A stretch of 64,000 nucleotides of DNA from Bdellovibrionia bacterium (GTDB taxonomy: Bacteria > Bdellovibrionota > Bdellovibrionia > Bdellovibrionales > JAGQZY01), in contig JAUHWN010000004.1 in NCBI GenBank assembly GCA_030424665.1, positions 679 to 64,678 of the forward strand, given 5' to 3'. The notes beneath the pieces are model-generated. The model worked only from the letters and a program-made list of their open reading frames with translations. It had not been told where the DNA came from and did no database searches. A program made the translations under genes and the position numbers. This document shows positions 1,876-5,056 of this stretch, one piece after another. Position 1 is the first letter of the stretch; every line of letters starts with the position of its first letter.

Positions 1876-2985
1876 ATGATTATTGGTGTGCCAAAAGAAA
1901 TTAAGATTAGTGAAAACCGCGTTGGTTTGACCGAAGCAGGTGTTCGTCAACTCGTGACAGAAGGTCACACTCTTCTCGTCGAAAAAGACGCCGGCCTTGG
2001 TTCAATGATTACCAACGAACAATACGAAAAAGTCGGAGCCAAAATTATCAATACGGCCGATGAGCTTTGGGCCCAAGCCGATATGATCGTTAAGGTGAAA
2101 GAGCCTCTCCCAGATGAGTTTGATCGCATGAAAGAAAATCAAATTCTTTATACCTACCTTCACTTGGCTGCCGAACCAAAGCTTACGAAAGTTCTTTGTG
2201 AGAAAAAGGTAAAAGCCGTTGCCTATGAAACGATCGAAGGTCCCAATAAATCTCTTCCACTTTTGAAGCCAATGAGTGAAGTGGCTGGTCGTATGGCAAC
2301 CCAGGTGGGTGCTTTCTATCTGCAAAAAGATCAGGGTGGAAAAGGTGTACTTCTAGGTGGAGTAACCGGTGTTCGTCGCGGTATCGTCACTATTATTGGC
2401 GGTGGAGTAGTTGGTACTAATGCTTTGACTATGGCAGTAGGCCTTGGCGCTGAAGTTCGCGTGATCGATGTAAACCATGATCGTCTTGAGTATCTCGACA
2501 ATGTTTACGGCAATCAAATTACTACGATTTATTCAAACCAACACAATATTGAGCGCTCAGTTCAAGAGTCTGACCTTGTCATTGGAGCCGTTCTAATTCC
2601 AGGACGTAAAGCTCCACATCTTGTTACAAAAGAAATGATATCGAGCATGGCCCCTGGTTCTGTCGTTGTCGATGTTGCCGTTGATCAAGGTGGATGTATC
2701 GAAACTTGTAAGCCAACGTCTCACGCCCAGCCGACCTATGAAGTAGACGGAGTGGTTCACTACTGTGTACCGAATATGCCAGGTGTTGTTGCTCGTACGA
2801 GTACATACGCTCTTACAAATGCTACTTTCAAGTATGCCTCACTTCTTGCCAAGTTTGGTGTTGAAGAAGCGGCGACGAAAGCTCCTGAGCTTGTAGATGG
2901 TATTAACGTCTATAACGGTAACGTCACTTACGAACCAGTCGCAAACGACCTGGATATGCCTTACGTTCCTTACAAGCCCATGTAA
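1876..2985 (+). CDS. ald: Alanine dehydrogenase
   Basis: [10 protein letters not shown] start (ATG 1876 after GGAGG), YLHLAA, GGGVVG Rossmann motif and HYCVPNMPG. Confidence 0.97.
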
Positions 2986-3010
2986 TTTCACGTTCCAAAT
3001 GTGAATACCT

Positions 3011-3042
3011 AAAAAAAGAGACCTCACCCGGTCTCTTTTTTT
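3011..3042. terminator. Bidirectional intrinsic terminator downstream of ald
   Basis: AAAAAAAGAGACC-TCACCC-GGTCTCTTTTTTT, a perfect stem with A/T tails. Confidence 0.85.
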
Positions 3043-3049
3043 TACCTCT

Positions 3050-3449
3050 CCTCCATTTCAAAATATTGATTTCTGTTTTTTATTTTCTCTTAGGGCGAGA
3101 CTCTCCCATTTTTTTGAGTTCCGCAGACCGGTTGTCCTTTGGGGGCTCCTTTGGGTAAGATATAGTTGTCTTCCCACTTCGAAACCCTCGGAGACCCAGT
3201 AAATTTACTCAAACAGTCCTCGGCATTTAAATCTCTCCAAACAGAATTGTGGTGCATTCGAGATTCGAGTCAAATCAGGGCCTGCGGAACTCGAAATTCA
3301 CTGGGTCTCCGAGGGTTTCGAAATAGAAAGACAAATACCCAAAGGAGCCCCCAAAGGACAATCGGATGAGGACTGTCTGAAAAAAAATGGGTATAGAGTC
3401 TCGCCCTAAGAGAAAACTATAAAAAATAGAAGGAATTTTGAAATGGAGG
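3050..3449. repeat. Large imperfect inverted repeat (arms about 3050-3206 and 3294-3449) with crossed internal 13-14 bp repeats; possible paired ncRNAs or MITE-like element
   Basis: Exact reverse-complement blocks: CCTCCATTTCAAAAT, TTTTCTCTTAGGGCGAGACTCT, CCCATTTTTTT, TTGTCCTTTGGGGGCTCCTTTGGGTA and TTCGAAACCCTCGGAGACCCAGT. Confidence 0.9.
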
Positions 3450-3462
3450 GGGGCAAAAAAAA

Positions 3463-4152
3463 CTAGTGGGGGAGGGCGATGTGGCCCCAGGTTTCGGTTT
3501 CGATGAGTGGGATTTTTCTTTGTTTGACTCGGTGAAGAACTTGCCAATGGGGATGGCCGTATTTGTTCTTGCGAGCGCTAGAAAATACCATCTTTAAACT
3601 TTTAAAAGTTGAAAAAAGTTTTTCTCCATTGGAGGTATTGCTGCCGTGATGTGCGAGCATTAAGAATTTCACTTTGTTAGATTTCTCCGCCTTGAAAGGC
3701 CAAGTTTCGAACCTTGTATCGGCGTCACCAGGAAAGTAAAATCCCTTGTAAAAGAGAAGAAAACCTGAATTATTTTTTGAAGCTCCTTGGTTTTTAAAAG
3801 ACGAAACCTGTTTAAGAGCTGATTCTTTGCAGAGAGGAATTCCAAGCCTTAAGGTTTTCGGTCGATTATCAAGGGCGAGACAGTGATTGAGTGACTTCAC
3901 TTTATAAAGAAAATTGAAATGATCTCGATCATAGTGGGAAATGTAGGTGACCTGCTTTTTTTTCTGGCAGAGCTTTTGGAAGCCTTCTCTTGGAAACCGC
4001 TCGCCACCAAAGTCAAAGTTAATGCAAGATTTAGGAGTCACAGAGGTCACCATCTGACCTTGTTCAATATTCCAGATAACAAAACCTAAAAAAGGATCGT
4101 GGTCAGAAGGAATGGAACTAAAGATGAGAAAAATAAATATAAGTCGCTTCAA
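3463..4152 (-). CDS. ComEC/Rec2-type metallo-beta-lactamase domain protein (stand-alone C-terminal half of ComEC)
   Basis: SHYDRDH (HxDxDH), FPGDA, AHHGS and NKYGHPH motifs of the ComEC MBL domain; lies directly downstream of the ComEC membrane ORF. Confidence 0.85.
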   Translation of the reverse strand: MKRLIFIFLIFSSIPSDHDPFLGFVIWNIEQGQMVTSVTPKSCINFDFGGERFPREGFQKLCQKKKQVTYISHYDRDHFNFLYKVKSLNHCLALDNRPKTLRLGIPLCKESALKQVSSFKNQGASKNNSGFLLFYKGFYFPGDADTRFETWPFKAEKSNKVKFLMLAHHGSNTSNGEKLFSTFKSLKMVFSSARKNKYGHPHWQVLHRVKQRKIPLIETETWGHIALPH

Positions 4153-4159
4153 ATTAAAC

Positions 4160-5056
4160 CTAACGAAGAAATTTTCTGCAAAAGAAGAATTGCAGAGCGA
4201 AAGAATATAAAAAAACTCCCGGTAAGGGGCTTGAATAAAGTGAATCGGGACTGACTTGGCCCAGCCACAGAAAGAAGAGTTCTAGGTTTCTCCAGATAAA
4301 TTCAACGGAGCTGGGCCAAAGCGGAAAAAGTAAGCAGGCAAATAGGGCTGCGGGTATGAGTAAAAAACCAATTAAGGGGGTGACGAGCAGATTGAGGAAA
4401 ATGCTAAAGGGGTGGGGTGGGCCCAGCGGTATGAGTAAGGGGAGGAGAAGGAAGTAAATTGCAAACTGTTGGAATCTACTTTTTTTCTCGCTACCCAAAA
4501 GAAGTGCGAGTTGGGCCACCCAACTGAGGTGAAAGGAGTAGGACTGACTCCACTGGGGGATAAAGGCGAGAAGGACCAGGCCACTCAATAGTGAACTCAG
4601 AAGGGGTGGGTGATTCAATCCTAAGGACCGACTGAGCTTTCTAAAGAGTCTAAAACAAAGAGCCCTTGCAATTGGTGGCTGAAAGTTTGTGGCGAAACTA
4701 AAGGCGACGAGGAGAGGAAGTCGGAAATATTCTAATAATTTAAGTTTTCTGCAGAGAAAGTTTATATTTTGTTCAATAAAGACCAAATGAGCCCCGGAAA
4801 CGACGATCAGGTGGAGTAATCCTGTGCTTTGTAATGCTGAATAAAGAGGACCTTTTGCTAAACTGCGTCCACATAGGAGTGCCTGAATTAGAGGCTTTTG
4901 GTGGATATCGGGTGCGATGACAAGACACTGTTTATGAAGTGTTAGGATTGCGTTTGCTAAATAACTCAGCAGATCAAAAACATCTGCTAATACTATCGAT
5001 AAGCAAACAGCAATAAACAGGCGCATATTGGCACTTTTTAGCATATATCCTTCCAA
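4160..5056 (-). CDS. comEC: ComEC/Rec2 competence membrane channel domain
   Basis: TGLLHLIVVSGAHL signature, SF.LSW motif and multiple hydrophobic segments. Confidence 0.85.
   Translation of the reverse strand: MEGYMLKSANMRLFIAVCLSIVLADVFDLLSYLANAILTLHKQCLVIAPDIHQKPLIQALLCGRSLAKGPLYSALQSTGLLHLIVVSGAHLVFIEQNINFLCRKLKLLEYFRLPLLVAFSFATNFQPPIARALCFRLFRKLSRSLGLNHPPLLSSLLSGLVLLAFIPQWSQSYSFHLSWVAQLALLLGSEKKSRFQQFAIYFLLLPLLIPLGPPHPFSIFLNLLVTPLIGFLLIPAALFACLLFPLWPSSVEFIWRNLELFFLWLGQVSPDSLYSSPLPGVFLYSFALQFFFCRKFLR

Follow-up and report, generated by a model that had tools for sequence, protein, structure and literature searches.

Nested hairpin repeats between ald and a ComEC-like gene in a Bdellovibrionia bacterium, and the widespread family to which they probably belong

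What fills the gap between the alanine dehydrogenase gene ald and a convergent ComEC-like gene in an uncultured Bdellovibrionia bacterium (GenBank assembly GCA_030424665.1, contig JAUHWN010000004.1)? Between the terminator of ald and the stop codon of the convergent open reading frame (ORF) lies a long imperfect inverted repeat, which an earlier note on the window (the whole 64,000-nt stretch of this contig that was analysed) had described as a non-coding inverted duplication of two arms of about 155 bp at 3050-3449. The non-coding character of the region and the convergent arrangement of its neighbours are as that note gave them. The duplication of one arm is not: positions 3043-3462 very probably hold two nested, oppositely oriented members of a single hairpin family, one that spans more than ten bacterial phyla and that we file as akin to repetitive extragenic palindromes (REPs) and miniature inverted-repeat transposable elements (MITEs) and as a member of neither.

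It is clear that the inverted repeat is real. A search of the window returned a nested series of arm pairs (3037-3064/3435-3462, 3076-3104/3395-3423, 3105-3115/3381-3391, 3128-3157/3336-3365 and 3163-3206/3294-3337) with 86-100% complementarity between partners, the outermost ends lying at 3037/3462 and the innermost at 3206/3294; the exact blocks of about 11-26 nt, split by short asymmetric stretches, stand as first recorded, but the arms reach further than had been allowed, to 3037 and 3462. Positions 3030-3470 fold with -226.8 kcal/mol on the plus strand (shuffle mean -117; z-score -19.9) and with -235.9 kcal/mol on the minus strand (shuffle mean -114; z-score -21.8), 0 of 100 shuffles fold as well, and either strand forms one rod. 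The three longest blocks of the element are unique to the locus within the window (0 expected by chance), and no comparable inverted repeat occurs elsewhere in the 64 kb. L123, a Logan assembly made independently from run ERR3428543, shows no difference over the whole element, which excludes an assembly fold-back, the artefact that the earlier note had named.

The arrangement of two short motifs, X and Y, reveals how the repeat is built. The unit of the family is a hairpin of about 130-170 nt composed of a stem P, an internal loop formed by GAGTTCCGCAG (X, 5') and GAGGACTGTYTGA (Y, 3'), and a stem-loop Q, in a near-universal layout: a 20-38-bp stem P ending in ..GGC, motif X, a stem-loop Q of 40-70 nt, motif Y, and GCC.. 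followed by the other P arm. Along the plus strand of the window the motifs follow one another as X at 3116, Y' at 3213, X' at 3282 and Y at 3368 (the prime denoting the reverse complement), and in the folded rod X is set against Y, and Y' against X'; X does not lie opposite X'. Because X faces Y and not its own complement, a plain inverted duplication cannot be the source, and the arrangement is instead that of a hairpin nested in the apical loop of a hairpin of the same family (Table 1). Since each unit is itself a hairpin, such a nested pair mimics one 400-bp inverted repeat, its three asymmetric spacers being two internal loops and a split apical loop. The inner unit has exact motifs, a 60-nt Q and a stem P of about 38 bp, as a complete family member does, and a covariance model of the family, R1, matches it at 3179-3322 on the minus strand (63 bits, E 2.7e-10), a score to be read with the inclusion of this very sequence in the seed alignment. 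It falls in the same subfamily as L175, a solitary copy in the sister Bdellovibrionia genome, both reading TTTC-X-GCCCTGAT...GCC-Y(TTTGAG). The outer unit has exact motifs and the adjacent P stem, and is a family member by its motifs. A TA dinucleotide stands at each edge of the inner module (3163-3164 and 3336-3337). If the module and one TA are taken out, the outer unit keeps the 7-nt loop TAAGATA and its X and Y come to lie about 68 nt apart, inside the 40-70-nt range of the family; the paired TA could mark a target duplication, or could be chance.

Table 1. Features of the hairpin locus and its immediate neighbours (positions in the window)
Feature	Position	Strand	Basis or remark
Composite hairpin, outer plus nested inner module	3043-3462		Inverted-repeat search, folding, identity in L123
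Outer module, stem P, 5' arm	3043-3115	+	Pairs with 3381-3462; pairs kept through two-sided changes between strains
Outer module, motif X (GAGTTCCGCAG)	3116-3126	+	Motif positions
Outer module, stem Q, 5' arm	3127-3157	+	Pairs with 3336-3367; 97% complementary
Remnant of outer apical loop, AGATA, unpaired beside inner module	3158-3162	+	Read directly from the sequence
Inner module, complete family member	3163-3337	-	Stem P (3293-3337 with 3163-3208), X, stem-loop Q, Y
Inner module, motif Y (GAGGACTGTTTGA)	3209-3221	-	Motif positions
Inner module, stem-loop Q, 60 nt, closed by GCC/GGC	3222-3281	-	Folding; apical core of the composite
Inner module, motif X (GAGTTCCGCAG)	3282-3292	-	Motif positions
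Outer module, stem Q, 3' arm	3338-3367	+	Inverted-repeat search
Outer module, motif Y (GAGGACTGTCTGA)	3368-3380	+	Family consensus
Outer module, stem P, 3' arm	3381-3462	+	Abuts the stop codon (3463-3465) of the convergent 229-aa ORF
Ald (alanine dehydrogenase)	1876-2985	+	True start 1876
ald intrinsic terminator	3011-3042	+	Perfect 13-bp stem, 6-nt loop, T-run; inverted-repeat search and eye
ComEC-like pair	3463-4152 and 4160-5056	-	Converges on ald

The existence of a family was established by motif searches. A gapped X..Y' scan found the sister locus and a multi-copy palindromic element of about 400 nt in Lachnospiraceae, and a metagenome match, L111, holds a single X...Y pair in a simple hairpin, which suggested the basic unit. 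The pattern GAGTTCCGCAG-N40-70-GAGGACTGT, scanned through species-representative genomes, has at least 118 exact-motif matches, where about 34 would be expected by chance (596 Gb x 2 strands x 31 gap lengths / 4^20, our own arithmetic), and one locus in the window. The hosts include Planctomycetota (Singulisphaera, with many copies per genome, Phycisphaerae, and metagenome-assembled genomes (MAGs) labelled Planctomycetales), Myxococcota and 'delta proteobacterium' MAGs (one with at least 10 copies; Nannocystis punicea FL3 is among these hosts), Bdellovibrionota (Bdellovibrio bacteriovorus YOA24 and the plain single copy in the sister genome of the window), the candidate phyla Eisenbacteria, Latescibacterota, Krumholzibacteriota and Omnitrophota, Coriobacteriia (Adlercreutzia rubneri isolate ResAG-91), Lachnospiraceae, and MAGs labelled Dormibacteraeota, Patescibacteria, Acidobacteria and Gammaproteobacteria. 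Copies are near-identical inside a genome and their stems differ between genomes; a search of genome contigs for copies of the stem blocks gave only chance matches because the stems are lineage-specific. Neither motif pattern matched viral contigs, and in metagenome contigs the X..Y' pattern gave chance matches only, apart from L111. Family members are intergenic, most commonly between convergent genes (32 of 123 modules), and by rough ORF calls the neighbouring genes mostly turn their 3' ends toward the module. In co-directional contexts the X-to-Y strand is antisense in 21 cases and sense in 10; a first count had given an antisense bias of 29/32, which a cleaner recount replaced with the 3'-end preference and this smaller excess. 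No gene recurs within 1.5 kb of the 118 loci, the ORF clusters there consisting of housekeeping genes and spurious ORFs that overlap the repeats.

Comparison with close relatives shows which parts of the element are held constant. In the nearest species-representative genome, JAUICP01 (L004/L126), the Ald protein is 99% identical to that of the window (ald DNA, 92.9%), the C-terminal ComEC-like ORF has 86.7% DNA identity, and a homologous element with 71% identity stands at exactly the same site. Across the 132 pairs of the consensus structure compared between the window and the reverse complement of L004, 31 are changed on both sides, 7 on one side (giving wobble pairs) and 0 are broken; in outer stem Q 11 of about 13 pairs are changed on both sides, and the inner stem-loop Q is only about 50% identical, while the asymmetric loop stretches are identical over runs of 20-26 nt. 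The earlier suggestion that conserved blocks are under selection and separated by variable spacers is thus the reverse of what is found, with compensated change in the stems and 100% conservation in the spacers. Divergence in ald, about 7%, is almost all synonymous, with an estimate of about 0.3 changes per synonymous site, and the 23% turnover of stem pairs would, from these comparisons, lie near the neutral rate. Arms that remain complementary at such a rate would point to arm-to-arm copying, by gene conversion or template switching, as compensatory selection alone would be too slow. Accelerated or diversity-generating evolution of the stems was considered and rejected, the flanks being 7-13% diverged and a 23% pair turnover being approximately neutral if arm-to-arm copying is assumed. 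The site is empty elsewhere in the clade: L124/L125 (Ald 96% identical in amino acids) have only about 29 nt between terminator and stop codon, and L005 (Ald 87%) likewise has no element, which shows that the element was gained or lost within the clade.

The element also occurs in both orientations, as had been foreseen for its core, and it is the whole segment that is turned. The L004 element aligns far better as its reverse complement (71% vs 60%), the flip is backed from both flanks by the Logan contigs L127 (ald side) and L129 (ComEC side), and a third allele, L128, has the L004 orientation. The ends of L127 (4326) and L129 (2815) both stop at the same inner exact repeat (..CCCTAAATT); elements of this kind break up a de Bruijn assembly wherever an exact block of an arm is longer than k. 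A second, independent flip is seen between L226 (1905-2038, plus) and L236 (1905-2038, minus), from MAGs labelled Planctomycetales, where modules between the same genes at the same position stand in opposite orientation with compensated stem differences. Such orientation differences would be expected of an inverton, in which the arms serve as recombinase sites and flipping controls ald or the ComEC-like genes, and both flips could be cited for it. Invertons have inverted repeats on either side of a promoter, an invertase close by, and both orientations within a single population. We nevertheless regard regulated inversion as very improbable. Neither an invertase nor any other recombinase lies in the neighbourhood; the arms vary between genomes and the interior loop is constant, the reverse of what recombinase sites should show; both genes have the element on their downstream side, and a complete terminator separates it from ald; promoter signal does not rise above chance; and the opposite orientations separate diverged lineages (about 7-13% at the nucleotide level), for which rare arm-arm recombination suffices. 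Hairpin arms are inverted repeats, so that recombination or template switching between them inverts the interior, and with no invertase nearby and no promoter signal above chance we read the flip as a recurrent consequence of hairpin structure and not as a regulated switch.

These comparisons also bear on another account of the locus, that it is a one-off inverted duplication, a local neutral palindrome or an assembly fold-back without relatives elsewhere. It is indeed a single locus in the window, and the de Bruijn assemblies of the sister strain do break inside the arms; the identical independent assembly, the homologous element at the same site in a diverged strain, the occurrence of its asymmetric loops as family motifs at 118 or more loci, and the facing of X with Y together leave this account with scarcely any credibility.

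The family members share a structure that is strongly supported by covariation. Model R1 was built from 41 dereplicated members, and in the first 100 of the at least 118 loci there are 105 model matches with a full-length P stem. Motif X is invariant in 41/41 dereplicated members, and the internal loop comprises 24 invariant nucleotides. Standard pairs fill 90.8% of cells, against 66% in shuffled alignments and about 42% when partners are slid, and the covariation score is 0.54, against 0.15 and about 0.1-0.16 for the same controls; the alignment is model-fitted and copies within a genome are non-independent, which makes these counts lean toward structure, and the slid controls and the dereplicated alignment agree with them. 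All 15 of the P-stem pairs show two-sided changes. The RNAalifold consensus is more than a plain bubble, with an invariant 5-bp helix (AGU(U)CC with GGACU) between two G/A-rich asymmetric loops. P-stem mismatches on the X-to-Y strand are of the G.U type in 54 cases and of the A.C type in 18, of the 26 dereplicated lineages that are informative, 24 have more G.U than A.C and 2 have less (p = 1e-5), and the window and L004 have the same bias on the equivalent strand. This bias indicates that one folded strand, RNA or single-stranded DNA (ssDNA), is under selection to pair. G.T is the mildest mismatch in folded ssDNA too, and as both molecules tolerate the wobble the bias does not separate them.

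One may ask whether the module is primarily a functional structured RNA, either a kink-turn- or loop-E-like protein-binding junction or an undescribed ribozyme, that is transcribed from the X-to-Y strand and has spread in many copies only secondarily. The 24 invariant nucleotides, kept over more than ten phyla inside strongly covarying helices, favour this proposal, and tolerance of G.U on one strand is a classic signature of RNA. The invariant helix between G/A-rich loops presumably resembles protein-binding RNA motifs, a likeness that we take as a lead only, and the excess of antisense placements in co-directional contexts (21 vs 10) would be expected if sense insertion into mRNAs were harmful. 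Against this stand the equal fit of the wobble bias to ssDNA, the want of any promoter or terminator tied to the unit (one promoter-like site in the 750 bp around the element, which is the chance level), the free flipping of orientation at orthologous loci, the lack of a match in Rfam to a known ribozyme or motif, and a behaviour typical of repeats, with dozens of near-identical copies per genome, presence and absence between strains, nesting and tandem copies. A primarily functional RNA thus seems possible and rather doubtful. On this reading the window would just hold two copies of it. Both readings may be true at once, since an active RNA can be carried by a selfish element.

Similarities to known structured RNAs are partial. 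The module shares with kink-turn-type junctions and small ribozymes an invariant loop, covarying helices, tolerance of G.U on one strand and occurrence in multiple copies, and twister and hammerhead ribozymes too are found in multiple copies. A kink-turn is made up of a C stem, a 3-nt bulge, tandem sheared G.A/A.G pairs and an NC stem. A kink-turn-like register can be drawn in which G1-A2 of X face G12-A13 of Y beside the GGC/GCC stem, with a 5-nt loop; RNAalifold prefers another register, and the lengths of the X/Y loop misfit the canonical 3-nt bulge. A hairpin ribozyme, an idea prompted by ACA|GUC and GGAA, was rejected: the AGUC/GGAA bases are Watson-Crick paired in the consensus, and there is neither a motif like loop B nor an Rfam match. 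Rfam, proposed at the outset as a check, yielded no family match in release 15 with E-values up to 10 (hammerhead, twister, pistol, hatchet, hairpin, HDV-like, 6S, HEARO and ROOL included), and the matches of the window, a Lachnospiraceae copy and typical modules were to unrelated small-RNA (sRNA) and microRNA (miRNA) models, at chance level and far below gathering scores. In searchable open-access full text the motif strings returned unrelated primers or nothing. Absence from Rfam and from open-access text is no proof that the family is undescribed.

The two classes of repeat named at the outset come close to the mark, as does structured nucleic acid, and we nevertheless place the family among neither the REPs nor the MITEs. 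With REPs and REPINs, which are mobilised by RAYT transposases, it shares an intergenic, non-coding, hairpin character, many copies per genome, no ORF of its own and a tendency to lie at the 3' ends of genes; mobilisation in trans through a folded single strand is established for REPs and is something that we only infer for the X/Y-loop family. A RAYT (TnpA_REP) gene accompanies REPs in their genome and commonly has the repeats on both sides. It differs in that its modules measure 130-170 nt and that the conserved part is an internal loop in mid-hairpin, common across phyla. REPs are 20-40 bp long, and one of their ends is marked by a conserved GTAG or CGTC tag (PMC3733652). No conserved terminal tetranucleotide is present in the 41 dereplicated X/Y-loop members. 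MITEs are defined by the terminal inverted repeats of a parent insertion sequence (IS) together with a target-site duplication, and their families are usually confined to a genus or family. Correia/NEMIS, ERIC, RUP and bcr1 elements resemble the modules in size (100-200 nt), in forming a long ssDNA hairpin, in their dispersed intergenic copies, in presence and absence between strains, in nested and tandem insertions and, possibly, in the TA duplication at the inner copy. The X/Y-loop family differs in its variable termini and in its distribution over more than ten phyla; inside one genome stem P plays the part of a long terminal inverted repeat, there is no general target duplication in other genomes, and no parent IS or transposase was found in the ORFs neighbouring the loci. 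Integron attC sites and the attP site of CTX phage are similar in being hairpins with an obligatory unpaired or asymmetric region, recognised on a single strand, with their structure conserved and their sequence variable, and different in that their paired binding arms are conserved, whereas in the X/Y-loop family it is the unpaired region. An attC site has R''/R' boxes (RYYYAAC / GTTRRRY) as well as L boxes that bear extrahelical bases, and it adjoins cassettes and an integrase; the element shows neither the R/L box consensus nor dif-like arms, with no integrase or cassette array nearby. Xer/dif, attC, retron and telomere-resolvase sites were rejected, each for want of a consensus and of a nearby enzyme.

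The reading that we prefer, with a probability of about 0.6, is that the family is a non-autonomous, selfish repeat of the REP/MITE kind, that a factor encoded elsewhere in the genome recognises its junction when a single strand is folded, and that the window holds a nested pair of its copies. Such a factor would recognise the folded X-to-Y strand, as ssDNA or RNA, through the invariant internal loop and not through the element ends, and would copy the repeat to new intergenic sites. One copy would have landed after the ald terminator in the lineage of the window and a second in the apical loop of the first, possibly at TA; the arms would have been kept complementary by arm-to-arm copying or by selection, and in one lineage recombination or template switching from one arm of the hairpin to the other would later have turned the whole of it round. 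In the 'safe' convergent gap between ald and the ComEC-like gene the element probably does nothing more than persist.

Several observations weigh against this reading. No mobilising enzyme is found near any copy examined; there is no clear target-site duplication and, in GC-rich genomes, no TA rule; the sole empty site compared (L124) is too diverged to define the insertion junctions; and an invariant 24-nt loop with asymmetric, GA-rich bulges, shared by more than ten phyla, suggests a functional RNA or a protein-binding motif sooner than a typical MITE, in which it is the termini that are conserved. The outer unit cannot be scored by the covariance model, as it carries a 175-nt insert in its Q loop. 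The palindromic elements of Lachnospiraceae, about 400-480 nt long and present in at least 8 copies in the MAG SUG999 and at least 4 in CAMGRE bin 71 (for instance L095 4300-4900 and L108 4320-5000), have the same four motifs as the window on entirely different stems and with permuted connectivity, for which simple nesting fails as an explanation, and their copy-specific outer arms include exact inverted copies of flanking intrinsic terminators.

These Lachnospiraceae composites carry two junctions, one per strand, at both ends of a rod of about 90 bp, with the P side closed at the apex by a GCGAAGC-type mini-hairpin (Y-GCGAAGC-X) and the Q side open, and they show no G.U strand bias (52 vs 51). 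The permutation of their motifs had raised the idea of a circular, rolling-circle, rod-shaped replicon, which was set aside as unnecessary for the window, where nesting of a single-hairpin module suffices. Together with arrangements in Coriobacteriaceae and Singulisphaera they hint that double-junction rods or arrays may be more than accidents. A tentative extension of this hint, which we would not expect to hold, is that the invariant GAGUUCCGCAG / GAGGACUGUYUGA junction might be the active core of an undescribed class of structured nucleic acid (a small ribozyme, a protein-binding RNA or the site of an ssDNA-acting mobilisation enzyme), spread over more than ten phyla on hairpin carriers, the double-junction rods of the window and of Lachnospiraceae then being functional, with one active junction per strand, and not an accident of nesting.

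Individual genomes provide further variations on the module. In Coriobacteriaceae RUG13125 copies are nested in the same orientation (L185 4940-5072 and L198 5015-5152), and in one of these the Q stem-loop has shrunk to a GCGAAGC mini-hairpin. In the Singulisphaera MAGs L137, L141, L144, L170, L171, L178 and L229 the module stands between runs of a 12-nt tandem repeat (approximately GGCTGTATCCGT), and modules are sometimes paired, 180-330 nt apart. Most copies in the MAG MFD06435.bin.2.192 (L132, L136, L148, L208 and others) share about 100 nt of extra similarity on each side, which indicates that the unit amplified there is larger than the module. The single-junction copy of L111 (1640-1760) lies upstream of a thymidylate-kinase-like ORF, and its Y is followed 13 nt later by a perfect complement (GAGGACTGT...ACAGTCCTC), an alternative hairpin that would exclude formation of the junction.

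If the family proves to be undescribed, it constitutes a pan-bacterial, multi-copy structured element whose 24 invariant loop nucleotides extend from Bdellovibrio to gut Coriobacteriia and Lachnospiraceae, and non-coding conservation of such depth is usually the sign of an RNA with catalytic activity, of a universal protein-binding site or of a substrate on which one specific enzyme acts. More generally, what looks like a large inverted duplication can be a nest of hairpin repeats, the two arms of a hairpin can change at an approximately neutral rate and yet remain perfectly complementary, and such hairpins can flip orientation at fixed loci. The elements also matter for annotation, as they break short-read assemblies and create spurious ORFs in GC-rich genomes. 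Cultured hosts (B. bacteriovorus YOA24, N. punicea FL3 and A. rubneri ResAG-91) bring these questions within reach of bench experiments.

No transposase or recombinase is found among the neighbour genes of the window locus, in agreement with the earlier note, and LpxC is also among the genes flanking the hairpin locus. The element is not the terminator of ald, again as first described: a separate perfect hairpin with a T-run directly adjoins it on the outside and is kept, with compensated stem changes, in the element-free strain L124. The A8 run at the right end of the element is part of a stem and does not amount to an intrinsic terminator, in which a U-run comes straight after a GC-rich hairpin on the transcribed strand, and a terminator scan of 2900-3650 found none, a scan that also misses the ald hairpin. 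The ComEC-like gene consists of two adjacent ORFs in different frames, the N-terminal part with a Competence domain and the 229-aa C-terminal ORF with an HHGS motif and no Pfam match; gene calls in the relatives L124, L126 and L129 divide it likewise, for which reason the split looks like a conserved arrangement and not a fresh frameshift. Inside the C-terminal ORF, at 3581-3626, lies an AT-rich imperfect palindrome of 24-28 nt with 75-79% complementarity, which is probably incidental.

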